Sequence record: MZ956763.1
DNA length: 64,000 nucleotides
Reading direction: 5' to 3' (one strand)
Source of the DNA: a phage
In this document: in pieces, positions 24,422 through 57,839 of the stretch
Layout: the number at the start of each line of letters is the position of its first letter
How positions within the stretch are numbered: the first letter of the stretch is position 1
The notes under the pieces: generated by a model
What the model was told of the DNA's origin: nothing
The model's database searches: none
The model's input: only the letters and a program-made list of their open reading frames with translations
Program-made: the position numbers and the translations under genes

Positions 24422-24877
24422 ATGATTTTTTGCAGCTTCCAAAAAAGAATTATTGAGATTCTATACAATAAGTTTGGGACAGATAACACATTTGACTCAA
24501 ATGAAGCTATCGAAGCCCTACAAGAAGGAAGTGATTACATCAAAAAACAGCCAATAGCCAACATCAGATACTACTTGACTCAGATGAGAAAGTGGGGTGT
24601 GCTCATCGTGGTAGGACAGATTAAGCAACAAGGGAGGATGCTCATCAACCAATTAAATAGAGGTTTTATTGAGAAGCACATTCAGCTAGACTATTTACTT
24701 AAAGAGCCACGAAATCAACGTGAAGAGCAGCAAAAAGACTTAAGTGATGGTGTAGGTGTGTCTCCAGACATAAAATTCTTTATTGGTGAGTTGATGTTTG
24801 ATACACTCCAAGATGCTGTTGAACACTGCAAAAAGTATATTATCAAAGTAAAACGTGCAAAAATTATTTGGGAGTAA
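24422..24877 (+). CDS. paralog family member A1 (unknown function)
   Basis: 151 aa; shares IEILY..FG.D.TF.S.EAI and C-terminal EHCKK.IIKVKRAKIIWE with three downstream genes. Confidence 0.6.
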   Translation: MIFCSFQKRIIEILYNKFGTDNTFDSNEAIEALQEGSDYIKKQPIANIRYYLTQMRKWGVLIVVGQIKQQGRMLINQLNRGFIEKHIQLDYLLKEPRNQREEQQKDLSDGVGVSPDIKFFIGELMFDTLQDAVEHCKKYIIKVKRAKIIWE

Positions 24878-24881
24878 TAAC

Positions 24882-25277
24882 ATGTTTGAGCTTCTGAAGG
24901 TTCTGTATATAAATTTTGGCTATGATAAAACATTTTCTGGCTCACAGCTAACTAAGGTTTTTAATAAATATCTACCACATGCTTCAATCAGGGATAAAGC
25001 TAATTGGTCTCACAGATTACGTAAAAGTGGGTATATTAGCGTTGTTGGAGCGACAGGCTTTAATAATGAGTATCTTATGAGAATCAATGAAAGCAAAGCT
25101 AAAAAGGTGCTTTTAAATTGTAATAACCATCAACAAAAGGATGAAGAGGTTAGTGTAGGTGAAGTAGGGTACTTCATAGGTGACATACACTTTACCAGTA
25201 TGGAGGCAGCAGTTGAGCATTGTAAGAGAACGGTTATCCAAACAAAAAGAAAGCGTATTGTTTGGGAAGAAGTTTAA
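24882..25277 (+). CDS. paralog family member B1 (unknown function)
   Basis: start at ATG after upstream stop; LLKVLY..FGYDKTF and C-terminal AVEHCKRTVIQTKRKRIVWE. Confidence 0.55.
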   Translation: MFELLKVLYINFGYDKTFSGSQLTKVFNKYLPHASIRDKANWSHRLRKSGYISVVGATGFNNEYLMRINESKAKKVLLNCNNHQQKDEEVSVGEVGYFIGDIHFTSMEAAVEHCKRTVIQTKRKRIVWEEV

Positions 25278-25298
25278 ACATTTGATTAGGAATACACT

Positions 25299-25763
25299 AT
25301 GATTTTTTGCAATTTACAGAAGCACGTAATAGAGATTTTATACAAAACCTTCGGGACAGAAAACACTTTTGACTCTAATGAAGCAATTGACGCATTAAGA
25401 GAGAATAGCCTCTTTATACGAGGCCAGTCAATCAGTAATACCCGTGGGTATCTAACAATGTTAAGACAGTCTGGTGTACTACTGACTGTAGGGCAGGTAA
25501 AAAGCAAAGGTAGACTAAGTATTAATCAATTAAATCGAGCCTTTATGGAGAAGCATATACAACTGTCAAGGATGCTAGATAATACGCGTGAAGAGTTGGG
25601 GAGTTCACAAAAAGCAAGTTCATCTGATGTTAAAGATGTGGATGTACAACCTGATGTAAGATACTTTATTGCTGATGTTATGTTTAAAACACTCGATGAA
25701 GCTATTGAGCACTGCAAAAAGCACCTTATTAAAGTTAAACATGCAAAAGTTATTTGGGAGTGA
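25299..25763 (+). CDS. paralog family member A2 (unknown function)
   Basis: 154 aa; roughly half of positions identical to 24422..24877 by eye. Confidence 0.6.
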   Translation: MIFCNLQKHVIEILYKTFGTENTFDSNEAIDALRENSLFIRGQSISNTRGYLTMLRQSGVLLTVGQVKSKGRLSINQLNRAFMEKHIQLSRMLDNTREELGSSQKASSSDVKDVDVQPDVRYFIADVMFKTLDEAIEHCKKHLIKVKHAKVIWE

Positions 25764-25767
25764 TGCT

Positions 25768-26148
25768 ATGATTGAACTGTTAAAAGTCCTATATAATGAG
25801 TTTGGTTATGATAAAACTTTTACTTGTTCACAGATACGTAGTATCCATGATAAGGAATTTCCAAATGTATCCAAGACAAACAAGTCAACTCGGTTCAATC
25901 GTCTTCGCCAGAGAGGTTACATTAAAATAGTTGGATACAAGAATAACTCTTTCGAGTATGTAATGCAGATTAACAGAGAAGTTTCAAGTAAAATACTTGA
26001 AGAGCCAACAGCCGAAGAACAAAAGATACAAGATGGTGAAGTTCGCTTCTTTGTGGAGAAGGAAAGTTTTGGGTCAATAGATGAAGCTATCGAATATTGT
26101 AAAAAGAACATTATCCAGATAAAGCGTAGAAAGGTTATTTGGGAATAA
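25768..26148 (+). CDS. paralog family member B2 (unknown function)
   Basis: start at ATG after upstream stop; MIELLKVLYNEFGYDKTF and C-terminal AIEYCKKNIIQIKRRKVIWE. Confidence 0.55.
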   Translation: MIELLKVLYNEFGYDKTFTCSQIRSIHDKEFPNVSKTNKSTRFNRLRQRGYIKIVGYKNNSFEYVMQINREVSSKILEEPTAEEQKIQDGEVRFFVEKESFGSIDEAIEYCKKNIIQIKRRKVIWE

Positions 26149-26165
26149 AGAGAGAGAGAGAAACT

Positions 26166-27047
26166 ATGAAAACATCTATCCGTGTTACAGTTCATTCACC
26201 GACTAAAGGGACTCACGAAGAAGAGTTTAACATTATCCAATTCCCTTCTGGTGAGATTGGTGGACACTTTTCACAAGAGCTTGTTGATTTCACTGCTTAT
26301 GCAGCATCATCTATCAACAATGTAATCATGATTGTGAAAGGTTATGATAAGGACACATTGTTTGCTGTGGCACTCGCTAAAGAAGCAATTGATGATTTAA
26401 TTCCTCATGATTATGCCTTAAAGACTGTCATCTTTTACTACTTACCAAATGCACGATATGACCGTCACATGTTTAAAGGTGATGCAGCAGCTTTGAAGGT
26501 TTTTGCTAAACAGGTTAATGCAATGGGGTTTGGTGCAGTCTGTGCAGTTGACCCTCACAGCTATGTACCAGATAACCTGTTTAACTGCTTCCAAAGTATT
26601 CCTCAAAATGAAATTGCAGTCCACTATGCAAATGACCCACTGGTTGATTACTTAGTAGCCCCAGATGCAGGTGCTGCTAAGAAGATTGCAGAGACTGCTA
26701 AAGAGGTGGATAAACCATATATCACAATGTCTAAGGTGCGCAACCTTAAGACTGGCGAAATTACTGGTATGCGAATCCTTGATGATGTTGATTTGACAGA
26801 TAAAACCGTCATGATTCTGGACGATATCTGTGATGGCGGTCGAACATTCATAGAAGCAGCTAAACATCTTCGTGAAGCAGGTGCAAAACGTGTGGAACTC
26901 TATGTAACACATGGTATCTTTTCTAAAGGTGTTGAAAACCTTCTTGACAATGGTATTGACCACATCTACACTACAAACTCTTTAGGGGAAGCTAAAGACC
27001 GTGGTTTAACACATTATGGTCAAGTTACTGTAGCAAACCTTGATTAA
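26166..27047 (+). CDS. ribose-phosphate pyrophosphokinase-like protein (PRPP synthetase family; candidate Adps of NARP1)
   Basis: PRTase-type motif VMILDDICDGGRTF; about 295 aa. Confidence 0.7.
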   Translation: MKTSIRVTVHSPTKGTHEEEFNIIQFPSGEIGGHFSQELVDFTAYAASSINNVIMIVKGYDKDTLFAVALAKEAIDDLIPHDYALKTVIFYYLPNARYDRHMFKGDAAALKVFAKQVNAMGFGAVCAVDPHSYVPDNLFNCFQSIPQNEIAVHYANDPLVDYLVAPDAGAAKKIAETAKEVDKPYITMSKVRNLKTGEITGMRILDDVDLTDKTVMILDDICDGGRTFIEAAKHLREAGAKRVELYVTHGIFSKGVENLLDNGIDHIYTTNSLGEAKDRGLTHYGQVTVANLD

Positions 27048-27093
27048 AACTTTATAGGGGGCTTTTAAGCCCCATTTTGAGAGAGATTAAAAG

Positions 27094-28875
27094 ATGACTA
27101 AATCACTTTATGCAGTACCAGCAGGTTTAAACGCAGATGCTTACAAATCTGGTCATGTTTACCAGTACCCTAGTGCAACAGATTACTTGATGTTTAACCT
27201 GACACCACGTAGTGATAAATGGTTTAACAGCCCTTTAGCAATTGATGGTGTAGTAGCTTTTGGTATTCAACGTTTTGTTAAAGATTACTTGATAGACCAC
27301 TGGAACGCCACCTTCTTTGAACGTGACAAAAAAGAAGCAATTGACGAAATCTTAGAAGTCATGAACGGTGTTCTGGGTAAAGATGCTATTGGTCGAGAAC
27401 ATTGGGAAGCACTTCACGACTTAGGTTATCTACCAGTTGAGGTATACGCTGTAGAAGAAGGTACAGTTGTCCCTATGCGTGTTCCAATGATTGTATTCCA
27501 GAACACTGTTTCAGGTTTCCATTGGGTAGCGGGATATCTGGAAGATGCTTTCTCTGCTGAGATTTGGAAGGCTTGTACCATTGCAACTATTGCATTGCAC
27601 TACAAACGTATCTGTAAGAAGTGGTCTGACCTTACTTGTGACAATGACTTGCATTTACCTTATCAGTGCCATGACTTCGCTATGCGTGGTATGTCCGGCT
27701 TTACCGATGACGCATTTAACGCTGTAGGTCACTTAACCAGCTTTAAAGGGACTGATAGCTTCCCTGCTGTGTATACAGCTAAACGCATCTATGGGCAGTC
27801 CTATCCAATTTCAGATATTGGTGGCTCTGTACCAGCCACTGAACACTCTGTCATGTGTGCAAACATTGCTTGGGAAGGTGGGGATGAGTTGATTGAAGAA
27901 GAAAGACGCTTTAAAGGTGAGTTACAAACCTTCCGTCGTTTCTTAACAGAAACTTACCCAACTGGTATTGTAAGTATTGTTTCAGATACTTATAATTTCT
28001 GGAGAACTGTATCAGTGATACTACCAGAACTCCGTAAAGAGATTATGGAACGTGATGGCAAACTGGTAATTCGTCCTGACTCTGGAGACCCTGTACATAT
28101 TGTCACAGGTTATAAAGCAATACATTTAGAGTGTGCTAAAAAGGCTTATTACGAACACCTAAGCAAGCTGGAAGCCAGCGACACAATGTTGAATGCTGTT
28201 CTGAACATGAAGCTTGAAAACATTAGCTATGGTATTGCTGGGTGGCTACTGTCAGAAGGCTACGAAATGGTTGTTGACAGAGAAGACTTTGAAGTTGCTG
28301 ATACAGTGATGTTGAAAAACGCTTATATGGTTGGTTCTGCAAACGTTGTAACACGTCCTGTAGCAGAGATTGATGGAGCTATCAAGACACTGTATCACAT
28401 CTTTGGAGGAACTATCAACTCTAAAGGTTTTAAAGTACTGGATGAGCACATTGGCCTTATTTATGGTGACTCTATCACGTTGGAACGTGCAAACGAAATC
28501 CTGAAGCGTTTGTATGAAATGGGTTTTGCAAGCTCTAACGTAGTGTTTGGTGTAGGTTCTTACACTTACCAGTACATGACTCGTGACACCTTTGCATTTG
28601 CTGTCAAAGCAACTCTTGCAAGCATTGGTGGTAAAGAGATTATGCTTGCAAAAGACCCTAAAACAGATAGTGGTGTTAAGAAATCTGCCTTTGGTGGTGT
28701 AGCACCTATGTGGGATGGTGATAAGCTGAAAGCTGTAGATGGCTATGGATTCCAGAGTTTTGCAGATGTACTTGACCACCCAGCTTGTGCCTTACGTTTA
28801 GTCTTTAGTGACTCTGAGCAGTTCGGTTACACGACTCTTGGTGATATTCGAAATAATATTGACAAGCAGCTTTAA
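27094..28875 (+). CDS. nicotinamide phosphoribosyltransferase-like protein (NAMPT family; candidate Namat of NARP1)
   Basis: 593 aa; N-terminal LYAVPAGLNADAYKSGHVYQYP typical of NAMPT/NadV family. Confidence 0.75.
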   Translation: MTKSLYAVPAGLNADAYKSGHVYQYPSATDYLMFNLTPRSDKWFNSPLAIDGVVAFGIQRFVKDYLIDHWNATFFERDKKEAIDEILEVMNGVLGKDAIGREHWEALHDLGYLPVEVYAVEEGTVVPMRVPMIVFQNTVSGFHWVAGYLEDAFSAEIWKACTIATIALHYKRICKKWSDLTCDNDLHLPYQCHDFAMRGMSGFTDDAFNAVGHLTSFKGTDSFPAVYTAKRIYGQSYPISDIGGSVPATEHSVMCANIAWEGGDELIEEERRFKGELQTFRRFLTETYPTGIVSIVSDTYNFWRTVSVILPELRKEIMERDGKLVIRPDSGDPVHIVTGYKAIHLECAKKAYYEHLSKLEASDTMLNAVLNMKLENISYGIAGWLLSEGYEMVVDREDFEVADTVMLKNAYMVGSANVVTRPVAEIDGAIKTLYHIFGGTINSKGFKVLDEHIGLIYGDSITLERANEILKRLYEMGFASSNVVFGVGSYTYQYMTRDTFAFAVKATLASIGGKEIMLAKDPKTDSGVKKSAFGGVAPMWDGDKLKAVDGYGFQSFADVLDHPACALRLVFSDSEQFGYTTLGDIRNNIDKQL

Positions 28876-28888
28876 AAGTATATGATAA

Positions 28889-28912
28889 GAGGCTCCTACG
28901 GGAGCCTTTTTT
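28889..28912 (+). terminator. intrinsic terminator after NAMPT-like gene
   Basis: GAGGCTCCTACGGGAGCCTTTTTT. Confidence 0.6.
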
Positions 28913-28929
28913 AATTTCTGGAGAATGCT

Positions 28930-29274
28930 ATGGACAACCTTTCCATATGGTTTAACAAGAAACCTGTGCAACCGAAATACTTACAAGTTGCCTATACAGA
29001 CATCCTTGAAGTTCTCGGTAAAGAAAAGTTTGAAAAGTTTTGTGAAGGTATCTACAATCACCACTGCCAATTTGCTACAAAAGAGGGTATGTTTGTCATA
29101 GAACAGTTCTTTGGCAGAGACCAAGATGACTATGAAGAGATTAGCTTTGTAATGAAATACATGATAGAGTATATTGAAAATCGTGGATTCGAAGTTAATC
29201 CTGAATTTTATGAACATGAGGGTGTACCTTTAGCAAAAGGTTTCGATGGCATACTCGTTAACTGGACTTGGTGA
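28930..29274 (+). CDS. hypothetical protein
   Basis: 114 aa ORF after terminator. Confidence 0.45.
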   Translation: MDNLSIWFNKKPVQPKYLQVAYTDILEVLGKEKFEKFCEGIYNHHCQFATKEGMFVIEQFFGRDQDDYEEISFVMKYMIEYIENRGFEVNPEFYEHEGVPLAKGFDGILVNWTW

Positions 29275-36708: not shown

Positions 36709-37494
36709 ATGGGTATTGTAAAAATTATTAACGGTGATATCTTTTCAGCATTTGATAAAGGTAAGTTTGACATCATCGGTCAGGGTTGCAACTGTATGAA
36801 TTTAATGGGTGCAGGTATCGCTGACAAGATTTCTAAACTTTACCCAAAAGCATATGAGACCGATACAGAAGTTTATCTATATGCAGGTGGCATTCGTCAC
36901 AAACCCTGTGAAAATTTACTGGGTAATTTCTCTGTAGCACGTTTAAAACAAGGTCGTATAGCTAACCTTTACACCCAACTTCATACTGGTAAAGATGCCC
37001 GATACAGTGCTTTAGAGTCATCTTTGAAGCAACTTAACAGATACTGTGAAGTCAATCAGTTGAAGAAAGTTGGTCTGCCTATGATTGGTGCAGGTATCGG
37101 TGGACTTGACCCTCAAGCTGTCACAGTTATCATTAATCAGGTGATGAAGGGTGTAGATGTATATCTGTATGTCTACGAGACAGAGATGTACAACGAGTTA
37201 CACTCAGGTTGGAAGAACTACTGTGAACCAGAATACTTTGCAGGTGTAGCAGTGTTCACAGATAACGCAGTTACCCTCTTCAGACGAAGAAAAGGTAAGA
37301 TACATCAAAGTAACCCTCCGGTTGAAAAGATGTCTCTAAGTAACGCTCTAGTTACCCACCTGTCGAAGAGCAATCACAGGATTGCAGTAACATTTGGCAG
37401 TGATGCAGATGCTTACATCTATGCAAGAACTGATGAGGATATCGAGACGATTTTCTCTTCACCAGAAGTTACCTTCTTAGACGCAAAGAACTAA
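36709..37494 (+). CDS. macro-domain protein (ADP-ribose binding/processing)
   Basis: N-terminal IINGDIF...IIGQGCNCMNLMGAGIADKI resembles macro-domain glycine-rich loop. Confidence 0.5.
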   Translation: MGIVKIINGDIFSAFDKGKFDIIGQGCNCMNLMGAGIADKISKLYPKAYETDTEVYLYAGGIRHKPCENLLGNFSVARLKQGRIANLYTQLHTGKDARYSALESSLKQLNRYCEVNQLKKVGLPMIGAGIGGLDPQAVTVIINQVMKGVDVYLYVYETEMYNELHSGWKNYCEPEYFAGVAVFTDNAVTLFRRRKGKIHQSNPPVEKMSLSNALVTHLSKSNHRIAVTFGSDADAYIYARTDEDIETIFSSPEVTFLDAKN

Positions 37495-37570
37495 GAAACT
37501 CTGTAAAATATTCACAATAGACTAAGCCTTTCTTATCTGGTAAATTTTTCAGGTAAGGAGGGCTTTTTTA

Positions 37571-37750
37571 TTTCAGAATTGTGCAGGTAGAGTTCTGTAG
37601 AGAAATCTGTAGAGAAAATTTTGAACTCCAAAGGGAAAATTCATTTTCAAGTTGTGCAGGTAATCTCCAAAGAGCTTTTTCATTTTCAAAACGTGCAGAG
37701 AAAAATCAGGTCGGGCAAGAAAAATCATTTTAGAATTGTGCAGGTAGGTG
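37571..37750 (+). repeat. four direct repeats, consensus about ATTTTCARAAtTGTGCAGGTA
   Basis: copies near 37571, 37643, 37681, 37725, plus duplicated CTGTAGAGAAA; upstream of small-gene array. Confidence 0.55.
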
Positions 37751-38003
37751 GGTGTAGGTGGGGATGTCGCCATTTCTCACAAGGCTACCACATCCGAAAA
37801 GAAAAGTCAACAGAAAAATTTGTAGCGGATTGAAAAATAATTCTTGATTTGTGTTCTGTTTTGTGGTATTCGCGCGCACCCGTTTCATTACATTTTTGCC
37901 AAAAATATTTTTAAAATTTTTCTTGACTATTCGAACGGGGTTATCTAGTATTTGCATCAACGGGGCGACAAGCCCGATAGCCTTAAACTAGGAGAATCTA
38001 AAA

Positions 38004-38210
38004 ATGCTATACGGTCGTGAATTGATGGTTACAACTAACGTTAACACAAATGTAAAACGTTTTTACATGCAAATTTGTGGCGTATGGTCTAGAATATCAG
38101 AGGCTGACTATTGCAACTATGTAGAAACGGCAATCAACTCTGATTGCTACCTTACAAGGAATACAAGAAAGCACATAAGACAGACAGCAGTTTACTACTA
38201 CGATATCTAA
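38004..38210 (+). CDS. small hypothetical protein (array gene 1)
   Basis: ORF preceded by conserved leader CCTTAAACTAGGAGAATCTAAAAATG. Confidence 0.5.
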   Translation: MLYGRELMVTTNVNTNVKRFYMQICGVWSRISEADYCNYVETAINSDCYLTRNTRKHIRQTAVYYYDI

Positions 38211-38298
38211 TAAAGTACTTTACAAGGGGCTTAAAAGTTGATATCTTAAGCCCCAGATAAAGAGCTTTATCAACAACCTTAAACTAGGAGATTCAAAA
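38211..38298 (+). repeat. class-1 intergenic leader repeat (representative copy)
   Basis: TAAAGTACTTTACAAGGGGCTTA..TAAGCCCCAGATAAAGAGCTTTA..CTAAACTAGGAGATTCAAAAATG; copies also at about 38680-38769, 39028-39115, 40096-40180, 40890-40976. Confidence 0.6.
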
Positions 38299-38679
38299 AT
38301 GGCATATCGTGCACCTAAATTCATCAATAAAGACAATTTCCGCAATGCACTGGAAAAATCACTTGATGAGAATTTTACAGGTCGGGTTATTGTTGTACAC
38401 GCATTCAATTTTAAGTATGATATTAACGGGAATAAAATCAACCATTACACGGCAACCATGTTAGATGGTGCGCTTTCAAGTGAAAAAGCCGTACTGAATG
38501 CACTTGCTGGACGTGGTAAAAACCTGATAAAATGCAATAAGAGACGTTATCAGGGCGGCGCATATGGTTACGATGATGCTGTTTATCATCTTGAGAATAT
38601 GGGCTATTCAGTGGAAAAAGCTGGAGCGCCGCAAATCATTGGTAGCGATGGTTATGTAACAATTTTCAAAATTAAATAA
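38299..38679 (+). CDS. small hypothetical protein (array gene 2)
   Basis: conserved leader and SD. Confidence 0.55.
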   Translation: MAYRAPKFINKDNFRNALEKSLDENFTGRVIVVHAFNFKYDINGNKINHYTATMLDGALSSEKAVLNALAGRGKNLIKCNKRRYQGGAYGYDDAVYHLENMGYSVEKAGAPQIIGSDGYVTIFKIK

Positions 38680-38769
38680 TAAAGTACTTTACAGGGGGCT
38701 TATAGTTCGATAAAGTAAGCCCCAGATAAAGAGCTTTACCACTAAATCCTAAATTGGAGAATCTGAAAA

Positions 38770-39027
38770 ATGGCTATTATCAAAAACGTTGTAGTTCCTG
38801 CAAAAACTCGTGATGACGCTCGCGTTATGGCTAAAAAGTTATGTGGGAGAGTGGTTGACAACGGGAAACAATCTGCTGTAAGATGGGGTGTAAAGGTTGA
38901 TAAACATTTAACCTTAAAACGTAGTTCAAACAACCTTTTTAAAGGTGTAAAATCACTCGGTAAAGTGAACGTTTTTACCAAAAAAGGTTATAAAATGCAC
39001 TTATCATTAACTGGCAATTTAATCTGA
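38770..39027 (+). CDS. small hypothetical protein (array gene 3)
   Basis: conserved leader and SD. Confidence 0.5.
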   Translation: MAIIKNVVVPAKTRDDARVMAKKLCGRVVDNGKQSAVRWGVKVDKHLTLKRSSNNLFKGVKSLGKVNVFTKKGYKMHLSLTGNLI

Positions 39028-39115
39028 TAAAGTACTTTACAAGGGGCTTAAAAGTTGATATCTTAAGCCCCAGATAAAGAGCTTTACCACTAAATCCTAA
39101 ACTGGAGATTCAAAA

Positions 39116-39412
39116 ATGAAATTATCAAATAAAGTTAGGGAAAACCTTAGCAAATTACTCAATAAAATTGATTTTATCGAGACATCAAGAAATAGTCATG
39201 ATGTTATGGAATGGTTACACGGCAAAATAAAAGGCCGTCGTGTGGTGATTTGCTTATGGAATAGTTGCAGGGAGTATAAAAAACCTGTATTACAAGTTAA
39301 TATATACGATAATACTTTTAAAAGCCCTGTAAAGTCTAAAAGCGATTTATTAGAATCTTATGAGATATCTGTAAATGGTAAAGTATCACGTAAAGAGGTA
39401 ACACCATGCTAA
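39116..39412 (+). CDS. small hypothetical protein (array gene 4)
   Basis: conserved leader and SD. Confidence 0.5.
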   Translation: MKLSNKVRENLSKLLNKIDFIETSRNSHDVMEWLHGKIKGRRVVICLWNSCREYKKPVLQVNIYDNTFKSPVKSKSDLLESYEISVNGKVSRKEVTPC

Positions 39413-39738
39413 TGACTGGCATCACCGCAATCATAGCCATTATAGCACTTTATAAGGCATATAAAGCCTATAATCTGGCAAGTAAGGCAATCACGCAGCA
39501 GGTTAGCAATAGCCTTGTAGAGAGCTTTCTAGGGCGCCTCAGTGATGAGCAAATAAAGCGGCTAGAGATGAGCTTCAGATATAAAGCGAAAACCTATCAG
39601 ATAAGTGACATCTTCAAAGATGATTTTCAGCTTGTCGATGATTATAATGCTCTGATAAATGCTTTAAATATCAGTGACTTAAAAGACTACTACGCTGTAA
39701 TTGTTCAAGAACTGAGCAAACGAAAACAAAATGCTTGA
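39406..39738 (+). CDS. small hypothetical membrane protein
   Basis: 110 aa with N-terminal TM-like segment; translationally coupled to previous gene, lacks the conserved leader. Confidence 0.45.
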   Translation: MLMTGITAIIAIIALYKAYKAYNLASKAITQQVSNSLVESFLGRLSDEQIKRLEMSFRYKAKTYQISDIFKDDFQLVDDYNALINALNISDLKDYYAVIVQELSKRKQNA

Positions 39739-39822
39739 CACTGGTTTTTAGATAGATTAAATTACACATCAACGGGGGGCGATAACCCCACTACATAAAG
39801 CCCTTAAACTAGGAGATTCAAA

Positions 39823-40095
39823 ATGTATACTACTAACAACGGTCGCACCTTAAACGTAACCCTACGCCACTATGTAAACGGGGTGATGCACTTCGAGGAT
39901 TTACGGGCTGAACAGCATATTTTGGATTGGCAACTTGCAGGACTCCAAAAAACTGCTACAGGATACGGGAAAAAGATTTCAACTAGTTGGAAAGTATACT
40001 ACGAGGGACGTTTGCGCAGAATTTATCAAGATGTGTACAGTAATAGCGCATCAAGTTACATCATGGTAAAAGGTAAAAAACTGCATTTAGTATAA
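39823..40095 (+). CDS. small hypothetical protein (array gene 5)
   Basis: promoter-hairpin-SD leader. Confidence 0.5.
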   Translation: MYTTNNGRTLNVTLRHYVNGVMHFEDLRAEQHILDWQLAGLQKTATGYGKKISTSWKVYYEGRLRRIYQDVYSNSASSYIMVKGKKLHLV

Positions 40096-40180
40096 AGTAC
40101 TTTACAAGGGGCTTATAGTTCGATAAAGTAAACCCCAGATAAAGAGCTTTACCACTAAATCCTAAATTGGAGATTCAAAA

Positions 40181-40585
40181 ATGGCTATTAATAACCGTGA
40201 ATTATCAATCTTAAAAGCACGTTTGACCGTCAACCGGATTAATGTTATTACATCATCAGCCCCAGACGAAACACTGCAAAACATTATTGGGAAGATTCAA
40301 AGTGTTATCTTAGACGTTGAAAGCGTAAAAAACTCACTGGCTGACGTTGCAGCAGGTATCACGCTAGACGGTGCACAATATGAAATGACCGACATGTTAG
40401 GCAAATCTAAGGTAATTAATAGGGAGTTAGATTTGAAAATGTTTCGTTTTGCTGTTAAAGTGTGGCTATCTGTCGAGTATGACGCAAATTTTGCAATCGC
40501 TGACTTTTTTGCAACATGGTTGCAACGTAATTTAACAAATCACGATTTTCGTGATATCTGCGATGTAATTTACGCAGAACTATAA
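40181..40585 (+). CDS. small hypothetical protein (array gene 6)
   Basis: conserved leader and SD. Confidence 0.55.
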   Translation: MAINNRELSILKARLTVNRINVITSSAPDETLQNIIGKIQSVILDVESVKNSLADVAAGITLDGAQYEMTDMLGKSKVINRELDLKMFRFAVKVWLSVEYDANFAIADFFATWLQRNLTNHDFRDICDVIYAEL

Positions 40586-40596
40586 AATTTCTCTTG

Positions 40597-40685
40597 ATTT
40601 TGTTTTTTAAAGCAAGTAAATTACTAATCAACGGGAGGTCATCACCTACCCACTACATAAAACCCTTAAACTAGGAGATTCTAAA
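40597..40685 (+). promoter_or_regulatory. class-2 leader of small-gene array: promoter, 5'UTR hairpin and SD (representative copy)
   Basis: TTGATT, 17 bp, TAAATT then TCAACGGGAGG...CCTACCC hairpin then CTTAAACTAGGAGATTCTAAAATG; similar copies end at about 39822, 41907, 42468, 43064, 43393. Confidence 0.5.
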
Positions 40686-40889
40686 ATGGCTATTATTAAC
40701 GGTTTAAACATTGAGACTACTCACATCAAAGATATCAAAGTCGGTGATATAGTCCTTTTTCACGGCGTAGAAAAAACCGTCACGGCGAAAGATATCAAGG
40801 AGGATTCATTCATGGGCCGAACCCTCTTCGGTGATTCCTATTGCTTAGGTTACCTTGCAGTTTTAAAAGTTGTCAAAAATAATCGTTAA
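40686..40889 (+). CDS. small hypothetical protein (array gene 7)
   Basis: promoter-hairpin-SD leader. Confidence 0.5.
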   Translation: MAIINGLNIETTHIKDIKVGDIVLFHGVEKTVTAKDIKEDSFMGRTLFGDSYCLGYLAVLKVVKNNR

Positions 40890-40976
40890 AGTACTTTACA
40901 AGGGGCTTATAGTTCGATAAAGTAAGCCCCAGATAAAGAGCTTTACCACTCAATCCTTAAACTAGGAGATTCAAAA

Positions 40977-41519
40977 ATGAAATGCTTTCACGGTACTACT
41001 CAAGAAAACTTCATCAACCTGATTAATAACGGTGATAAGCCATCAGGTGCATGGAATTGTTCGGATATGGACGGCAATTTTTACGTGTATCCAGAGAATA
41101 AAATCTATGGCGACGATGAGGAAGAGATAACATCTGAAGGCATCCAGCAAGCGTTAGGCAATGCCACTATCACGGCAGCTTTCCAGATGAAAACCCAAAA
41201 TATTGTTATCTTAGAACTTGATATCCCAGAGGATGACCTGAATGATGATTATTCTTGCGATAATATGTCTGGCGTAGCAAGTTTTACAGAATACTTCGAT
41301 TTGAATTGGATTAAAAAGGTTTACGTAACTGAGTTTAATGCGATGTTTTCGCCTTTTTGTCTTCCTTCATTGGATAACCCAAATTTAAACTATCTTGACG
41401 AGTCTCTGGAACTTCTTGCTAAAAGTGTTCAACAGTCGGACAGTATTCAGGTTTTTTGTGACATCATGGATACACTAACGGGAAACATCGCAGAAGAGGA
41501 TTTAAAGAGCTTTTTTTAA
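40977..41519 (+). CDS. hypothetical acidic protein (array gene 8)
   Basis: 180 aa; conserved leader. Confidence 0.55.
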   Translation: MKCFHGTTQENFINLINNGDKPSGAWNCSDMDGNFYVYPENKIYGDDEEEITSEGIQQALGNATITAAFQMKTQNIVILELDIPEDDLNDDYSCDNMSGVASFTEYFDLNWIKKVYVTEFNAMFSPFCLPSLDNPNLNYLDESLELLAKSVQQSDSIQVFCDIMDTLTGNIAEEDLKSFF

Positions 41520-41585
41520 AAACCTATGCAATCACCTTATAAACACTAATCAGCCCCTTACAGGGGCTTTTAAGGGGCTTAAATC

Positions 41586-41819
41586 ATGCTTATAACCGTT
41601 TATCTTATCCTTTCTATTTGTAATGGCCATTCATGTGATTTTAAAGGGCTTGAGGAGTTCACAGGAAGTAAAGAAAATGCTGTTCAGGTCTGTCAGATAG
41701 CAAGGCAAGACTACCCCGCCAGTGATGACATACAATGTTATTTTAAGACAGAAGATGAAGATGGTATCTATTTCGATAGTGTAGACGGTCAATATGAAAT
41801 AATTATAGAAAAAGACTAG
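41586..41819 (+). CDS. small hypothetical Cys-containing protein
   Basis: 77 aa ORF, no conserved leader. Confidence 0.4.
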   Translation: MLITVYLILSICNGHSCDFKGLEEFTGSKENAVQVCQIARQDYPASDDIQCYFKTEDEDGIYFDSVDGQYEIIIEKD

Positions 41820-41907
41820 ACAAGCCTGATAAAAATCTGTAAATTGTCAATCAACGGGAGGGATGACCTCCCAACTAAACAAAGTCCTTAAACTAGGAGA
41901 TTCAAAA

Positions 41908-42249
41908 ATGGCTTATGTAACCGTAATTACCAATAAAGAAGATTCATCTTGGTCAACTCAAGTAAGTGACAAGATGTCACCTATGCAGTGCCTAAAATAC
42001 TTTGAGCAATGGAACAAAGGTGAGGAAACAAGCCCCTTTCAAGTAATGCAGATTATTCATACAGACAACGAAGGGAATAAAACTGTTTTGAATAGTGAGT
42101 ACTATGCAACCAGATTAGAAACGAGAAGTAAAGCAATGAAGCTCTTACGTGAATCCGGTTATTCTCATATTGCCGCGCTAATCTGGGATGACCTCCTAAA
42201 AAGTCAGCGTATCAGCTATGTAAAACCTGAAAAAATATTCATCAGTTAA
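41908..42249 (+). CDS. small hypothetical protein (array gene 9)
   Basis: start at ATG directly after conserved leader; track ORF begins upstream inside leader. Confidence 0.5.
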   Translation: MAYVTVITNKEDSSWSTQVSDKMSPMQCLKYFEQWNKGEETSPFQVMQIIHTDNEGNKTVLNSEYYATRLETRSKAMKLLRESGYSHIAALIWDDLLKSQRISYVKPEKIFIS

Positions 42250-42468
42250 TCAATAACTTACAAAAAACTTTTAAAAAAATGTTGACAATCCCTCTTGACA
42301 TTGGTAACTTTGTTCGAGGGGGCTTATCTAAAAGGGATTCACTTAAAAGATTCTTTATAGATAAGCTCAAAAATTGCTTGCAATCAGCTATCAAAACAAG
42401 TAAATTACTAATCAACGGGAGGGATAACCTCCCCACTAAGTAAAGTCCTTAAACTAGGAGATTCAAAA

Positions 42469-42999
42469 ATGAACAAGTTCAAAGCTATCAACTTCATTCG
42501 TTCAAATAGTGTTATGTCTAAGCCTGTTAAAGACACCTATGAATTTCGTTGTAATGGTGTACACTTTGCAACCATCACTAAATCAGAAAACGGGGCTTAT
42601 TACATTCATCGTCGTAATGTTGCAACCGTTGTAGTCTCTCACTTTATGCAAGCCGTTGCGGAACTCCTCCCGATGTTTTTAGGGCTTTACTTAGATGAGT
42701 GTAAAAACGTTCACAATCACGTTAAAAACCTTTTAAACAGTTATAAAATGGCTTATGAACGTTCTATCAAGTCCTTAAACAAGTTCTATAAAGCCCCTGT
42801 AAATACTGTTTCAATGGCCTACGCTGCAAATGGTGAAAGAGTAAGCCTATCCGATGTGGAAGATATCGAGCTTTACGACCATCGTCCTAACGGTTACTCT
42901 CAGACCCTCGGTGAAGGTTTATCATTCAATATCAAGAACTTAGAAAAAACTTTAAAAGATATTGAAAAAGATATTGACGAGACAATCAAAAATCTGTAA
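42469..42999 (+). CDS. hypothetical protein (array gene 10)
   Basis: 176 aa; conserved leader. Confidence 0.55.
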   Translation: MNKFKAINFIRSNSVMSKPVKDTYEFRCNGVHFATITKSENGAYYIHRRNVATVVVSHFMQAVAELLPMFLGLYLDECKNVHNHVKNLLNSYKMAYERSIKSLNKFYKAPVNTVSMAYAANGERVSLSDVEDIELYDHRPNGYSQTLGEGLSFNIKNLEKTLKDIEKDIDETIKNL

Positions 43000-43064
43000 A
43001 TTACTAATCAACGGGAGGGATGACCTCCCTACTAAATAAAGTCCTTAAACTAGGAGTTATCAAG

Positions 43065-43328
43065 ATGGAAAACGTAGAATTAACCACACTTTTACAAATT
43101 GCAACCGACAAAGAAAACGTAGCATTAATTCACCGCATCGAAAGTGATTTGTTCAATGGTGAAATCATCAAAGAGTCTTACGAAGTTGTCGGATTCAAAG
43201 ATGGTAAAACGTTTGGATTCTTTGACCTCGAAAAAGGCAACGCTATTACAAAATATGATGTTNTATCTTGTGAGATTCTTACAAAATACAACGAAAAAAG
43301 GCTTGCAACATACGCNAACATGCAGTAA
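43065..43328 (+). CDS. small hypothetical protein (array gene 11)
   Basis: start after conserved leader; contains ambiguous bases (N) at 43263 and 43316. Confidence 0.45.
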   Translation: MENVELTTLLQIATDKENVALIHRIESDLFNGEIIKESYEVVGFKDGKTFGFFDLEKGNAITKYDVXSCEILTKYNEKRLATYXNMQ

Positions 43329-43393
43329 ATTACTAATCAACGGGAGGGATGACCTCCNTACTAAATAAAACCNTTAAACTAGGAGATTCAAAA

Positions 43394-43642
43394 ATGGCAA
43401 CTATCCGCGCAACCGTTAACNAATTNNGCTTCTACTCTCTGGATGTTAAATTTGACCTTGTGGGCACTGATAACGCCTTTGAAATGGTGAAAGGTCTTAT
43501 CAGTCAGACCATCAAAGACTATAATCCTTCTGATGAGTTCTGGAAAGAAACAAAACAGGAAGTTCTTAAAGATGGTTATTCTTTTCACTATTGGGGTGAA
43601 AAAATTGTCTCTCTGTACTACGATAAAGAAGGCACTAACTAA
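43394..43642 (+). CDS. small hypothetical protein (array gene 12)
   Basis: start after conserved leader; Ns at 43421 and 43426-43427; followed by terminator. Confidence 0.45.
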   Translation: MATIRATVNXXXFYSLDVKFDLVGTDNAFEMVKGLISQTIKDYNPSDEFWKETKQEVLKDGYSFHYWGEKIVSLYYDKEGTN

Positions 43643-43680
43643 ACGCCGCAGCGGGGCTAAATAGCCCCAGATACCTTTAC

Positions 43681-43707
43681 AGCCCCTCTGAATAGGGGCT
43701 TTTTTAC
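43681..43707 (+). terminator. intrinsic terminator closing small-gene array
   Basis: AGCCCCTCTGAATAGGGGCTTTTTT. Confidence 0.6.
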
Positions 43708-43710
43708 GTC

Positions 43711-45300
43711 TTATACAATCCTTATACAAACCCTTTCCCTTTCCTTCCTAGAATCTTACTAGACCTTAAAAGCAATAACTCTATAGTCTACTCTATAGCC
43801 TTTTATCAAATCAACTTAAATATAAGCCCATAACCCGAAAGGGAAGGGCAACCATTTAAACGCTCTATAAAGCCCTATAACAACCTTATTAACCCAACTT
43901 AAGGGATTGCATTATCTCACCCTTAAAAGCCCTTTATAAAGCTTCCTAGAGCCTTAAAAGAATCTTATAAGGGTGTAAGCTTTATTATCTCGTTAGCTAT
44001 CTTGTGAATAACTAAAAAGGGCTATGAGATAGATTCTATCGAATCCTATTGTTAGTGTCTTAAAAGTATGTTATAGGGGCTATGAAGTAGCTTAAAAGTT
44101 GCTTAAAAGTTACGTAAAAGAGGTTATAAAGTTACGTAAATGCTAGCCCCCTTAACATTTTCTTAACAATTTCTTAACAATCCCTACATAGTTATGCTTT
44201 TAAGGCACTTGTTAGCAACTTGTTAGCCCCTTGTTAAATCTCTGTTAAGACCACGTAAAAGCCTTGTAAGAGTCTTTGACATAGCCTTAAAAGCTCCTGT
44301 AAAGCCCTATAAAGAGCTATCCATACAGTTGAGGGGTAGATACTAGGAAGAGACTTAAAAGGGCTTATAAGGGGCTATAGAGAGCTTTTAAGAGATATGT
44401 TTAGAGATTCACTAAGAGGAAAGGGAATGATAAGAAAAGAGATAGTGACCATGTTAATAGCTTGTTAAAAAGATTAAACACTTGTTAGGAACTTGTTAAT
44501 TATCTTTACAAAATAACCCTTAAAAATTAACTTGTTAGCTCTTGTTAGTCATCTGTTAAGATTCTGTAAAGCCTATTCAGTACTTGTTAGAAAACTGTTA
44601 CAACCTTGTTAGTTCTGTTAAGAATATGTTAAGACCTCTGAAGAGATGTTAAAGAGATGTAGCAACTGTTAAGAGATTGTTAATGATATTTTAAAATTTT
44701 GCAAAGGGGGTGTTAAGGGGCTGTTAAGGGCTACCAAGCAGATATACATCCTAATCAGATATTTTTGAGTTCCTTCAAAGACCCTAAAAAATGACTTGAT
44801 AGTCCTATTTTATAAAAATTTTAAAATTCTGAATAATTACCTATACAGTCTTCTAAAAATACAGGCATAAACAGGCTTATAAGATACCTTGTTAGTACCG
44901 TGTTAGACCTTGTGAGATAAGGTCTGTAAAGATATTCCTGTTAAGTTTGCTAAAACAGTCTATATAGAGGCTTAGTAATACCTAGTGAACATCTATAGAG
45001 GGTATCATAGGTAACCTAGAGATTAAGAGGTGTATAGGAGCTTCTAAGAGGGTATAGAGAGGTGGTTAAGGTGATTGTATAGGTTGTTAAGAAGGCTTGT
45101 TAGGAGAGTGTTTAGAAGGCTTGTTAGAGGGCTAGTTAGAAGGGTTATACAGAGGGGCTATTAAGACCACTAGATAGTTACTAAGATACTATATAGTACT
45201 ATATAACTATATAGAGAGTAAGATTAAGAAGGTTGTTAAGAAGGATAGATATTTTATTCACATATGATGGTGACCCAGAGGTTGGGACAACCGATAAAAT
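43711..45300. repeat. ORF-free region dense in degenerate short motifs (CTTGTTAG, CTGTTAAG, CTTAAAAG, CTATAAAG)
   Basis: about 1.6 kb with no ORF of 60 aa or more in any frame; dozens of motif copies at irregular spacing; between convergent gene blocks. Confidence 0.6.
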
Positions 45301-45312
45301 TTTATAAAAATT

Positions 45313-45338
45313 AAAAAGCCCCCAATTAAGGAGGCTCT
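45313..45338 (-). terminator. intrinsic terminator closing minus-strand block
   Basis: minus strand reads AGAGCCTCCTTAATTGGGGGCTTTTT; same 23-nt core as terminator at 7365. Confidence 0.5.
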
Positions 45339-45347
45339 TAAGATATT

Positions 45348-45941
45348 TTAAATCAGTGTTTCCAGAACTGTTTTTAATGATGACTTGGTTGTCTGATAAA
45401 AATGAGTAAATCCATTGTTGTTATCAAATACCTGCATCATGATATCATCTCCCTTGATTGGGTACACTCGGATATCATAGTGGAAACCGTTAAAGACACA
45501 AGAACCACTACAGAATGCTCTAAAATCATCCACTGAGATATACTCTTCATGACCTGTGATTTTTATACAAACACCTTTACTCGGCCTCTTAGGGTTGATA
45601 TCTTCCATCACAGACATATTCTGCCCACCAAGAGATACCATAGTGACCACTTTACGGTTCTTCTGTTTAAAGTACATTTTAACTTTCTGTAAAGTGTCTT
45701 CATAGAACGGATAAGACTTCTCTACAAAGATTCCTTCTAATGGCTCTTTACCGTTTACAATACCTCTGGTATGACGTACTGAGAAGATAAGTTGCTCTAG
45801 TATGTCAAGGCTTTCTTCGGAGAGTGCTTCCCGAATATCATTCCAGTCAAGTACTAGGTAGTTACCTTCAACTTCTTTTAAGTTATCTTTTTCCATATCT
45901 ATCACGCCATTATCGTAAAACTTGGTAAGCTGGAACTGCAA
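45348..45941 (-). CDS. hypothetical protein
   Basis: 197 aa ORF; last gene of minus-strand block. Confidence 0.5.
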   Translation of the reverse strand: MQFQLTKFYDNGVIDMEKDNLKEVEGNYLVLDWNDIREALSEESLDILEQLIFSVRHTRGIVNGKEPLEGIFVEKSYPFYEDTLQKVKMYFKQKNRKVVTMVSLGGQNMSVMEDINPKRPSKGVCIKITGHEEYISVDDFRAFCSGSCVFNGFHYDIRVYPIKGDDIMMQVFDNNNGFTHFYQTTKSSLKTVLETLI

Positions 45942-56430: not shown

Positions 56431-56505
56431 TGTGGGTTAGCATAAATGGTAATGCAAACGGCTGATAACCGTTAGAAGAGGGTTCGATACCCTCACCTAC
56501 AACCA
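56431..56505 (+). tRNA. tRNA-Ile(GAT)
   Basis: anticodon stem AACGG/CCGTT, loop CTGATAA; T-arm GAGGG-TTCGATA-CCCTC. Confidence 0.6.
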
Positions 56506-56520
56506 ATTTCAATAGAGTTG

Positions 56521-56549
56521 TTGACATTGAGATGTGACTACTTTATAGT
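56521..56549 (+). promoter_or_regulatory. sigma70-like promoter inside tRNA cluster
   Basis: TTGACA, 17 bp, TATAGT. Confidence 0.55.
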
Positions 56550-56842
56550 AACTAAAATACTTCACAATATGTATAATTCAAACACCAATACATGAGCGTT
56601 AGACGTAACACAATGTGGGGAAATTTGTTGTACATATTCTGAATAGTTTTCGTTGCGTAGCGTCTATTTTGCAAATTTAAAATAAATGCAAACGACAATG
56701 TTTTTCTGGCAGTAGCTTGATAGGCTAAACACCAGTGAGGTCTTCCAATCCCTCATCAAAGAATTTGGCGTACTCGCCCACGGTATGATTAATAAGGTGG
56801 GCATCTTTAAGGGCTTTCTAAGAGAGTCTTTAAAGATAATTA

Positions 56843-56924
56843 CGGGGCGTATCTCAGCGGTCTTCTAAACCGCCGTTAACCGAGTAAGTGGAGTATGCGG
56901 GTTCGAGTCCTGCCGCCTCGACCA
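56843..56924 (+). tRNA. atypical tRNA-like gene, possibly tRNA-Arg(TCT)
   Basis: good acceptor (CGGGGCG/CGCCTCG), T-arm and a perfect hairpin GCGGT-CTTCTAA-ACCGC, but no canonical D-arm and a 23-nt region before the T-arm. Confidence 0.3.
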
Positions 56925-57067
56925 ATTTAGTTAGCAGATTACTTAGACGACCTAAGCGGGTCTTCCTGTAGGGAGGTGGTCTGTATCTCATGTTTTCCAG
57001 AACATGTAAATAATCTGAGAAGGGGCTTTACAGTGTTGAGATAATACGGTAAGCTTCGAATTATAGT

Positions 57068-57150
57068 GTGGGACGATGTTAAGACTCTAAGGCATGAGCA
57101 ACGGCCTCCAAAACCGTTTCAAAGGGGTTCAACTCCTCCGTCCCATGCCA
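57068..57150 (+). tRNA. atypical tRNA-like gene, possibly tRNA-Trp(CCA)
   Basis: acceptor GTGGGAC/GTCCCAT, T-loop TTCAACT, anticodon-like loop CTCCAAA on stem ACGG/CCGT; D region about 7-8 nt too long. Confidence 0.3.
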
Positions 57151-57163
57151 AAGTCTTATTAGG

Positions 57164-57251
57164 GGTAGGTAGCGGCTAATGGCAGCCAAACAGTCTTGAA
57201 AACTGTTGCCACTGTAGAGATACGGTGAGGGTTCGACTCCTTTACTTACCG
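57164..57251 (+). tRNA. tRNA-Ser(TGA), long variable arm
   Basis: anticodon stem ACAGT/ACTGT, loop CTTGAAA; D-loop TAATGGCA; CCA not encoded. Confidence 0.55.
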
Positions 57252-57407
57252 CCTAATAAGATTTAAAGCCAAGCTTCATTCGGATGTCGCTTTGGTATCC
57301 CGCGTGTATTGTCGTACACACTGATAAAACACCTAGTAGGTGTCACGGAGAAGAGATAATATCAAGCTCTCCAAAGGTTCTAGTCACCGGATTAAACAAG
57401 ACTATGC

Positions 57408-57429
57408 AAAGACCTTTTTAGGTCTTTTT
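57408..57429 (+). terminator. intrinsic terminator inside tRNA cluster
   Basis: AAGACCTTTTTAGGTCTTTTT. Confidence 0.5.
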
Positions 57430-57508
57430 AGAGGGCTTCTAAGGTTATTACAGCTTGTTGTGGAACCTTGTTGCTTAGGTTCTTAGAAGTTCTCTAAAAA
57501 GATTTAAT

Positions 57509-57586: not shown

Positions 57587-57593
57587 AATTAAT

Positions 57594-57669: not shown

Positions 57670-57675
57670 GACATT

Positions 57676-57751: not shown

Positions 57752-57757
57752 ATTAGT

Positions 57758-57832: not shown

Positions 57833-57839
57833 AATTAAT

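Follow-up and report, generated by a model that had tools for sequence, protein, structure and literature searches.

A probable array of PeSL-type regulatory cassettes among the small genes of a Felix O1-type myovirus

Within a 64-kb window of phage DNA (the whole 64,000-nt stretch analyzed here, from sequence record MZ956763.1), 14 small open reading frames (ORFs) of 67-180 aa are packed on the + strand between positions 37923 and 43700, and most of them are preceded by one of two kinds of repeated unit that combine promoter-like sequence, a hairpin and a ribosome-binding leader. We consider it likely, with a probability of roughly 0.7, that this region is a hyperplastic early-gene array of regulatory cassettes of the promoter-early stem-loop (PeSL) type in a Felix O1-type myovirus (Ounavirinae); the array is assigned to the PeSL type because its design matches that of the PeSL cassettes of T4-type phages. 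A megablast search with the segment 37900-43700 yielded 255 phage records, nearly all of them Felixounavirus with Escherichia, Salmonella or Shigella hosts, the closest being phage HK3 with 90% identity across the full length of the segment. The window as a whole shows colinearity with the Salmonella phage Felix O1 (from 58.3 kb through the end of that genome to 34 kb) and contains a cluster of 24 tRNA genes, as expected for Felixounavirus; the Felix O1 counterpart of the array consists of ORFs 15-23.

Two classes of repeated units

The leader CCTTAAACTAGGAG (with up to 2 mismatches) occurs in 9 copies, compared to 0.5 expected by chance, and addition of the variant CCTAAA[CT]TGGAG brings the number of leaders to 12; in both cases, all copies are on the + strand, between 37981 and 43385. 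Each leader contains GGAG, located 8-9 nt upstream of the ATG, followed by AUUCAAAA, and is predicted by folding to be mostly unpaired. Upstream of the leaders, the hairpin GGGGCTTA..TAAGCCCC is found in 4 copies and in a fifth copy with a mismatch, and a TAAATTACTAATCAACGGG-like motif in 6 copies. Altogether, there are five class 1 units, with about 116 nt in common, and six or seven class 2 units, with about 81 nt in common; positions of the spacers that have no evident function are also near-identical between the copies, and an upstream stop codon lies within or adjoins each unit. Neither the leader nor either of the unit cores has a copy outside the array in the 64-kb window or outside 8.4-12.1 kb in the complete 86,155-bp genome of Felix O1. 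Because all copies are confined to the array in both sequences, a genome-wide promoter or Shine-Dalgarno consensus is ruled out. No Rfam family was matched within 37400-45400.

The initial annotation of this DNA described about 12 small ORFs without mutual similarity, each behind almost the same leader, with two leader classes in alternation. The near-identical leaders are indeed there, 12 in number and exclusive to the array; the ORFs, however, number 14, and two of these lack the leader, namely a 110-aa gene (39406-39738) that overlaps the preceding gene and a 77-aa gene (41586-41819) with a different upstream region. The dissimilarity of the ORFs is confirmed: all-against-all BLASTP places the proteins in separate families, so that the genes are not tandem paralogs, and the 14 proteins match 14 different PHROGs, each of 'unknown function', which rules out paralogous genes. 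An apparent link between the 90-aa protein G and the 67-aa protein G' (cassettes and their genes are denoted by letters) is an artifact of ORFs extended through the leader, which is then translated as 'LNKVLKLGDSKM'. Strict alternation of the classes does not hold, the order along the array being 2,1,1,1,(coupled),2,1,2,1,(other),2,2,2,2.

In an alignment of 70 class 1 units pooled from the window and 14 relatives (15 genomes), the -35 sequence CTTTACA is invariant, and a TAnnnT hexamer follows 17 nt downstream in 69 of the 70 units, with an 18-nt spacer in the remaining one. This putative -10 element comes in 10 hexamer variants, such as TAAAGT, TATCTT, TAAGAT and TAGTAT, among which T25, A26 and T30 of the alignment are invariant and the neighboring loop bases vary, a pattern that fits a -10 element and is not expected of a hairpin loop. 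The promoter-like sequence is intertwined with a GC stem, GGGGyUwn/nwArCCCC, of 7-11 bp (-6 to -16 kcal/mol, with compensatory changes among its 26 sequence variants), which is positioned between -35 and -10 and over the latter. This structure is extended by a lower stem, in which AUAAAGUACUUUA, the stretch that includes the -35 and the stop codon of the upstream gene, is base-paired to the invariant UAAAGAGCUUUAU on the downstream side of the GC stem. The invariance of GATAAAGAGCTTT from Felixounavirus to Kolesnikvirus is explained by this pairing because GATAAAGAGCTTT is the complement of the -35/stop region. The full hairpin is interrupted, about 61 nt long, with about 21 bp (7+5+9) and 1x1 and 3x3 internal loops, and folds at -21 to -25 kcal/mol, with z from -1.7 to -3.6; in size, this predicted, covarying stem corresponds to an RNase III site, that is, an interrupted hairpin of about 20 bp of double-stranded RNA between cistrons. 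Thus, the conserved class 1 hairpin of the initial annotation is present, turns out to be larger than claimed once the lower stem is included, and additionally harbors the promoter-like CTTTACA-17-TAnnnT sequence. The AAAGnnCTTTAC boxes that flank the class 1 hairpin, 9 in number and found in class 1 units only, were first taken for the protein-binding repeats of a two-box operator; folding and covariation show that they pair with each other as the lower stem, and the operator was rejected.

Covariation in class 1 was assessed for 72 distinct arm sets that represent 166 units from 35 genomes, including Erwinia phage phiEa21-4. In this set, 94.3% of the cells pair, compared to 87.7 +/- 0.4% in shuffles (0 of 500 reach 94.3%), a comparison that overstates independence because the arm sequences share ancestry and were in part chosen by pattern; sliding of the partner columns lowers pairing to 56% or less. 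Compensatory changes on both sides are found in 7 of the 21 pairs, including GC<->UA exchanges in the lower stem and, in phiEa21-4, the change from GGGG/CCCC to GGUG/CACC, and these double changes are themselves clear despite the kinship of the sequences. Furthermore, U-G pairs are frequent in the stem (20 of 72 at one pair); such pairs work on the sense strand only and therefore point to selection on RNA.

The class 2 units consist of an A-tract, a -35 (TTGACA, TTGATT, TTGCAA or TTGACG), a 17-nt spacer, TAAATT (replaced by TAAAGT in Mooglevirus-like genomes), ACTAA-TCAAC and a GC hairpin. In all 58 distinct class 2 5' untranslated regions (5'UTRs), folding yields a hairpin with its start 5-6 nt into TCAAC|GGGG, with energies from -3.6 to -15.9 kcal/mol; the stems comprise many different, covarying sequences, and the leader past the hairpin is mostly open in the predicted folds. 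The promoter-like TTGxxx-17-TAAATT and the 5'UTR hairpin that the initial annotation had described for this class are both present. Ahead of genes N and O, the -35 of the unit is within the coding end of the upstream gene, the stop codon of which is the TAA of TAAATT. The usual distance from the -10 to the transcription start is about 7 nt, so that the class 2 hairpin is predicted to lie 2-5 nt from the 5' end; a hairpin near the 5' end protects E. coli mRNAs from 5'-end-dependent decay (the ompA type). In some variants, the loop of the class 2 hairpin contains an ATG that shares the reading frame of the gene (41863-41907, 43020-43064, 43349-43393, and Felix O1 ORF19); as a result, genes L, N, O and G are too long by about 15 false codons (MTSxLNKVLKLGDSKM...) in the output of ORF finders and in some GenBank records, and gene callers are thus misled by leader-hairpin ATGs for several genes. 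In other class 2 variants, the loop ATG opens a mini-ORF of 6-7 codons.

Cassette variation and alternative explanations

The array was compared across relatives represented by 14 GenBank records and 19 IMG/VR contigs. The comparison delineates 17 cassettes, a0, A, a1, B, C, D, E+F, f1, G, H, G', J+K, k1, L, M, N and O, which hold 19 gene families because E+F and J+K are two-gene cassettes. Among the 28 complete arrays, there are 22 architectures, and only genes E, F and O are universal. When the window is aligned to the 14 GenBank relatives by BLASTN, 69 of the 70 block ends (37 of 38 distinct positions) are no more than 10 nt away from an intergenic unit; the units make up 29% of the region (p ~4e-19). 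The units themselves bear traces of exchange: gene L is located behind a class 1 unit where cassette k1 is inserted, J is behind class 2 where G' has been lost, and H likewise in arrays that lack the cassette upstream of it; a duplicated leader flanks the f1 insertion, a tandem scar is seen in one L leader, and two leader variants are scattered as a patchwork across orthologous positions. Outside the array, the window and Felix O1 align in blocks of 6-9 kb with 92-97% identity, compared to blocks of 1.2-2.3 kb with 88-91% identity inside it. These observations, namely array-specific units, variable architectures, and breakpoints and chimeras in the units, uphold the proposal of the initial annotation that this is a modular cassette region with standardized expression signals.

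A homologous array in phiEa21-4 (Kolesnikvirus), genes 15-31, has the same design with a consensus of its own: the stem is GGTG/CACC in every class 1 copy, and the leader is of the AAGGAA form, CCCTTATAAAGGAA. Units are thus more alike within a genome than orthologous units are across genera, which indicates concerted evolution and implies exchange among units. The phiEa21-4 and Felixounavirus arrays have only 5 cargo families in common (D, G, J, E and M), arranged as D-G-J-E-M in the former and as D-E-G-J-M in the latter; judging from these sequences, cargo turnover and reordering appear to belong to a deeper evolutionary scale.

Under the favored reading as PeSL-type cassettes, each unit would most likely start transcription of the gene behind it with the host RNA polymerase. 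In class 1, the -10 would be located in the loop and 3' arm, and the lower stem would be formed by pairing of the upstream stop codon/-35 with the first transcribed bases (GAUAAAGAGCUUU), so that the hairpin would form only in RNA reading through from upstream; on such read-through RNA, it might cap, process or attenuate the upstream message, with the new transcript beginning right after the hairpin, at or near the A of AGAUAAAG. The class 2 transcript is predicted to begin 2-5 nt ahead of the stable GC hairpin, which would act as a 5' stabilizer. Moreover, the near-identical units of about 65-115 nt would provide homology for recombination, both within a genome and between co-infecting relatives, and recombination at the units could delete, restore or replace whole cassettes and homogenize the units. 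A more far-reaching version, in which class 1 units combine a DNA promoter with an RNase III-type processing hairpin in read-through RNA, so that each message's end is coupled to the beginning of the following message, and the array is an integrase-free exchange system in which recombination between units sets cassettes free and takes them up again, early host-directed genes thereby moving between Ounavirinae genera, is a speculation that we consider rather improbable.

Several observations weigh against the reading as PeSL-type cassettes. Neither hairpin class is followed by a T run, the units continuing into AGATAAAG or ACTAAATAAAG; accordingly, intrinsic (rho-independent) terminators were rejected for both classes, and classical terminator activity is doubtful because the stems lack such a run. 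The class 1 -10 hexamers match TATAAT weakly, and a consensus scan of the region shows a slight overall excess of promoter-like sites (45, compared to 32 by chance); the relatedness of the arm sequences in the covariation analysis also belongs here. In the literature searched, there is no transcript mapping for any Ounavirinae phage. Reverse transcription PCR (RT-PCR) of Felix O1 found ORFs 16, 20, 21 and 22 to be maximal at 5 min and ORFs 17, 19 and 23 later, and the same table also scores structural genes as 'early' (PMC3185647); because of the latter, this timing is weak and noisy evidence for an early role of the array genes. We found no link between promoter class and the Felix O1 RT-PCR timing. 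Finally, the order of cassettes is never permuted within the genus (0 of 34 arrays are non-colinear), and a combination of repeat-mediated deletion and ordinary homologous exchange among relatives would account for the pattern with no need of true cassette mobility. The initial annotation had set fixed gene order, ordinary divergence and a leader shared genome-wide against its own proposal; the first of these holds within the genus, whereas the divergence is other than ordinary and the leader is confined to the array.

The units can also be viewed as a T7-style processing array, in which one polycistronic early RNA is made from the first promoter (37923-37951), the class 1 structures are processing hairpins for RNase III or another enzyme, and their likeness to promoters is incidental. 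Located directly behind the upstream stop codon, the class 1 hairpin (roughly 61 nt, 21 bp) is of the size of the 60-nt T7 R1.1 substrate, the U-G pairs indicate selection at the RNA level, the predicted first promoter is strong, terminators are found at the ends of the array only, and there is a further 18-bp hairpin in the spacer between L and M. Nevertheless, we regard this explanation as unlikely: the TA and the last T of the putative -10 do not vary in the loop, a place free of any constraint from pairing, and are always 17-18 nt from the invariant CTTTACA, and the array does not look like a single-promoter operon because class 2 units inside it carry what appear to be good TTGACA-17-TAAATT promoters. 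Besides, promoter and processing roles are compatible, so that this explanation differs really in the role of the hairpin.

It is improbable to a still greater degree, in our estimate, that the units are alike simply through selection for one optimal early promoter and ribosome site, with unrelated deletions and no part of the repeats in recombination. Strong consensus signals are often common to phage early genes, the order is fixed within the genus, and the -35 regions before N and O are gene-specific coding sequence, all of which agrees with such ordinary signals. However, they account neither for junctions in the units far above chance, chimeric leaders, duplicated leader scars and class switching, nor for the concerted evolution of the units (all phiEa21-4 class 1 copies with GGTG/CACC and the AAGGAA leader) or the near-identity of spacer positions without function. 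Least credible, and in our view very unlikely, is that the uniform leader is mainly the target of a phage post-transcriptional regulator, either a RegB-like nuclease acting at GGAG and the A-rich tract or a RegA-like repressor, for a coordinated shut-off of the array. The T4 RegB/S1 target is an 11-nt single strand with a GGA start and an A-rich 3' part, found in early mRNAs (PMC1702504), and the GGAG with the A-rich AUUCAAAA in every leader, predicted to be mostly unpaired, resembles it. An A-rich spacer after a GGAG Shine-Dalgarno is, however, also simply a good ribosome site, and no RegB or RegA homolog is annotated in Felix O1, although no search for either was made here.

Genes of the array and their surroundings

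All features of the array are on the + strand. It opens with a class 2-like unit (37923-38003; TTGACT-17-TAGTAT at 37923-37951, 5' hairpin at 37961-37976, leader CCTTAAACTAGGAG) ahead of gene A (38004-38210; 68 aa, phrog_5293), which is missing from 11 of the 28 arrays. Three class 1 units follow. The unit at 38210-38298, with the -35 at 38219-38224, the -10 at 38242-38247, an extended hairpin at 38210-38270 and the leader, precedes gene B (38299-38679; 126 aa, phrog_4495); that at 38679-38769, with the promoter-like sequence at 38688-38716, the hairpin core at 38695-38723 and the leader variant CCTAAATTGGAG, precedes gene C (38770-39027; 85 aa, phrog_5089); and that at 39027-39115 (promoter-like sequence 39036-39064, hairpin core 39043-39071), the insertion site of cassette D (170 aa) in 17 of 28 relatives, precedes genes E (98 aa) and F (110 aa, 39406-39738). 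The latter two overlap by 7 nt, occupy 39116-39738 and are present in 28 of 28 arrays.

Downstream of these, a class 2 unit (39735-39822; TTGACA-17-TAAATT at 39735-39763, 5' hairpin at about 39774-39789, leader) leads into gene G (39823-40095; 90 aa, phrog_3436), and a class 1 unit (40092-40180; promoter-like sequence 40101-40129, hairpin core with one mismatch 40108-40136) into gene H (40181-40585; 134 aa, phrog_4327). Gene G' (40686-40889; 67 aa, phrog_3623), missing from 8 of 28 arrays, has a class 2 unit (40594-40685; TTGATT-17-TAAATT at 40594-40622, hairpin 40633-40651, leader). The last class 1 unit (40886-40976; promoter-like sequence 40895-40923, hairpin core 40902-40930) serves the two-gene cassette at 40977-41819, which consists of J (180 aa, phrog_3303, 40977-41519) and K (77 aa, phrog_4640, 41586-41819); the two genes are separated by a hairpin (41552-41568) and always found together (24 of 28 arrays).

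The remaining units are of class 2. Gene L (41908-42249; 113 aa, phrog_4318), the start of which ORF finders extend to 41863 through the leader, is preceded by a unit at 41817-41907 (TAGACA-17-TAAATT at 41817-41845, hairpin 41856-41872, leader), and gene M (42469-42999; 176 aa, phrog_4725) by one at 42378-42468 (TTGCAA-17-TAAATT at 42378-42406, hairpin 42417-42433, leader). In the unit at 42974-43064, the -35 TTGACG lies inside the end of gene M, the -10 TAAATT holds the M stop codon, and the hairpin is at 43013-43029; it is followed by gene N (43065-43328; 87 aa, phrog_7022), missing from 13 of 28 arrays. The last unit (43303-43393; TTGCAA-17-TAAATT at 43303-43331, with the N stop codon in the -10; hairpin 43342-43358; leader) precedes gene O (43394-43642; 82 aa, phrog_4559), present in 28 of 28 arrays. 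All 7 ambiguous bases (N) of the window fall at 43263-43427, in cassettes N and O and their units, and could stem from a mixture of variants in the population that was sequenced or from difficulties in assembling the repeats.

The spacer between L and M is unusually long (219 nt) and conserved in relatives. Its part ahead of the M unit (42250-42377) contains an 18-bp interrupted hairpin (42321-42367) preceded by two TTGACA-like hexamers, and the 125-nt segment 42276-42400, which covers the hairpin region, folds with z = -3.8. This hairpin could be another processing element, a small RNA or a cassette remnant.

None of the 14 array proteins has a significant match in Pfam; homologs of M carry PF26821. 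Homologs of J and M are confined to contigs of Ounavirinae size. A structural model of M (pLDDT 75) shows a small beta domain and long helices, with generic matches only; the N-terminus of F is hydrophobic and that of K is signal-like. Protein J begins with MKCFHGT, and its weak fold matches are ADP-ribosyltransferases; a macro-domain protein, of a type that binds or removes ADP-ribose, is encoded just upstream of the array (36709-37494). The pairing of J with the macro-domain protein is no more than suggestive.

This macro-domain 'phosphatase' gene (Pfam Macro) is the left neighbor of the array, and a 1.6-kb non-coding stretch adjoins the array on the right. Terminator-like hairpins with a T run are found only at the two ends of the array (37524 and 43681) and, in the scan, at a few places outside the units: the one at 37524-37565 on the + strand closes the unit of the upstream macro-domain gene and marks the left boundary, and the one at 43681-43700, also on the + strand, marks the right boundary; they correspond to t13 and t23 of Felix O1, respectively (PMC3185647). 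Between the left terminator and the first array promoter, at 37566-37760, there are 3-4 copies of a TTTTTCATTTTCAAnnTGTGCAGGTA-like unit, 37-45 nt apart, and a similar four-copy set occupies the equivalent place in phiEa21-4 (L035 640-814). The non-coding stretch itself (43700-45340), located between the array and convergent genes on the - strand, is dense with short repeats (CTTGTTAA/G, CTTAAAAG and CTATAAAG) in both orientations at a spacing of 10-11 nt, and phiEa21-4 has a comparable repeat field; by its sequence pattern, the field looks like a phased protein-binding array, for example, a replication origin or a packaging site.

Elsewhere in the window, a pair of PRPP-synthetase-like and NadV-like genes at about 26200-28930 was placed by colinearity with ORF127 and ORF129 of Felix O1; their counterparts in Bas63, genes 79-80, form the NARP1 NAD+-reconstitution anti-defense pathway (bioRxiv 10.1101/2024.02.11.579819). 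Other breaks of colinearity with Felix O1, at 12742-12755, 24425-26219, 27046-27079 and 56431-58140, coincide with HNH endonuclease genes of Felix O1 or with differences in tRNA content and are a second source of mosaicism, unrelated to the array. Matches to the array at about 88% identity, at the record end, were also obtained with a record named 'Campylobacter phage A132' and with a 'Staphylococcus' record; these are probably contamination or chimeric assemblies in public records.

Significance and comparison with known systems

The paper on the Felix O1 genome (2010) reported direct repeats of 57 bp and 39 bp that lie between genes 15/16, 19/20 and 18/19, 20/21, without interpretation, and stated that promoters and temporal control were unknown (PMC3185647); the later Felixounavirus papers that could be searched give promoter counts from software only or mention a block of hypothetical genes, and no paper applying the PeSL concept to Ounavirinae was found in the literature searched. 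The reading as PeSL-type cassettes would explain these repeats, offer candidate early promoters for this group of phages, which are widely used in Salmonella and E. coli typing, biocontrol and therapy, and carry the PeSL idea to phages outside the T4 type; large virulent phages in general may make use of repeated promoter/stem-loop units that drive the expression of accessory genes and at the same time are sites for their recombination. The approximately 19 small, variably present gene families are a natural first set for testing of host takeover, superinfection exclusion or anti-defense; host takeover and anti-defense are putative roles that the initial annotation had suggested for the cargo.

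Anti-defense genes of archaeal viruses were found via shared regulatory sequences (PMC11065993). As in the array, a shared upstream regulatory motif marks small, diverse accessory genes there; the viruses and the motifs are different, and anti-defense activity was demonstrated in the archaeal viruses, whereas it is a candidate role in the case of the array. The gain or loss of single accessory genes as units is also reminiscent of morons, which bring their own promoter and terminator (PMC2839356), and of integron cassettes. However, the morons of lambdoid phages lack conserved flanking repeats, and integron cassettes are promoterless and require attC and a tyrosine-recombinase integrase, whereas each cassette here has a promoter-like unit of its own; there is no integrase in the Felix O1 annotation, and the array units do not resemble attC. 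The class 2 hairpin recalls the ompA-type 5'-terminal stabilizing stem-loops of E. coli mRNAs, reportedly described by Emory, Bouvet and Belasco in 1992, in being GC-rich, located a few nucleotides from the predicted 5' end, and variable in sequence with the structure kept, the difference being that the class 2 transcription start is a predicted one.

The early RNA of T7 is cut by RNase III at five intergenic sites, with a 60-nt R1.1 substrate (PMC4858673). The class 1 hairpins share with these sites the form of interrupted hairpins of about 60 nt between small early genes, which would leave a 3' hairpin on the upstream message; unlike the array units, the T7 sites are not promoters, whereas here the hairpin contains promoter-like sequence and there are internal promoter-like units.

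The closest known system is that of the PeSLs, composites of a sigma-70 promoter, a stem-loop, a Shine-Dalgarno sequence and an ATG that are clustered in hyperplastic regions of T4-type phages; their stems, often GGGG..CCCC, are located between -35 and -10, over the -10 or after the -10, and they are sites of insertion, deletion and replacement of ORFans, with mini-circles formed experimentally (PMC2839356). There are differences: the array phage is a Felixounavirus (Ounavirinae) and not a T4-type phage, which is a matter of taxonomic scope and not of mechanism; there are just two sharply defined classes; the class 1 stem reaches about 21 bp through pairing of the -35/stop region with the transcript start; terminator activity, measured for PeSLs, is doubtful in units without a T run; within the genus, there is only presence or absence of cassettes, without reordering; and promoter activity and mini-circles are known from T4-type phages, whereas the array units are putative promoters. 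The similarities encompass the whole layout. The T4/PST consensus TTTACW-N17-TAYWAT (PMC4122927) is close to class 1, and the units have an intergenic upstream stop codon, an AT-rich stretch and, judging by sequence and conservation, a sigma-70-like promoter with a 17-nt spacer; in both classes, a stable, covarying stem-loop lies in or beside the promoter, and a Shine-Dalgarno sequence and a start codon form the 3' end of the unit. Furthermore, many copies are present among ORFans in one hyperplastic region, here a single 5.7-kb array, the junctions of indels and replacements between relatives fall within the motifs, and the consensus is lineage-specific. Thus, the design is one already known from the PeSL cassettes of T4-type phages, and it is the occurrence in Ounavirinae, not the principle, that is new.

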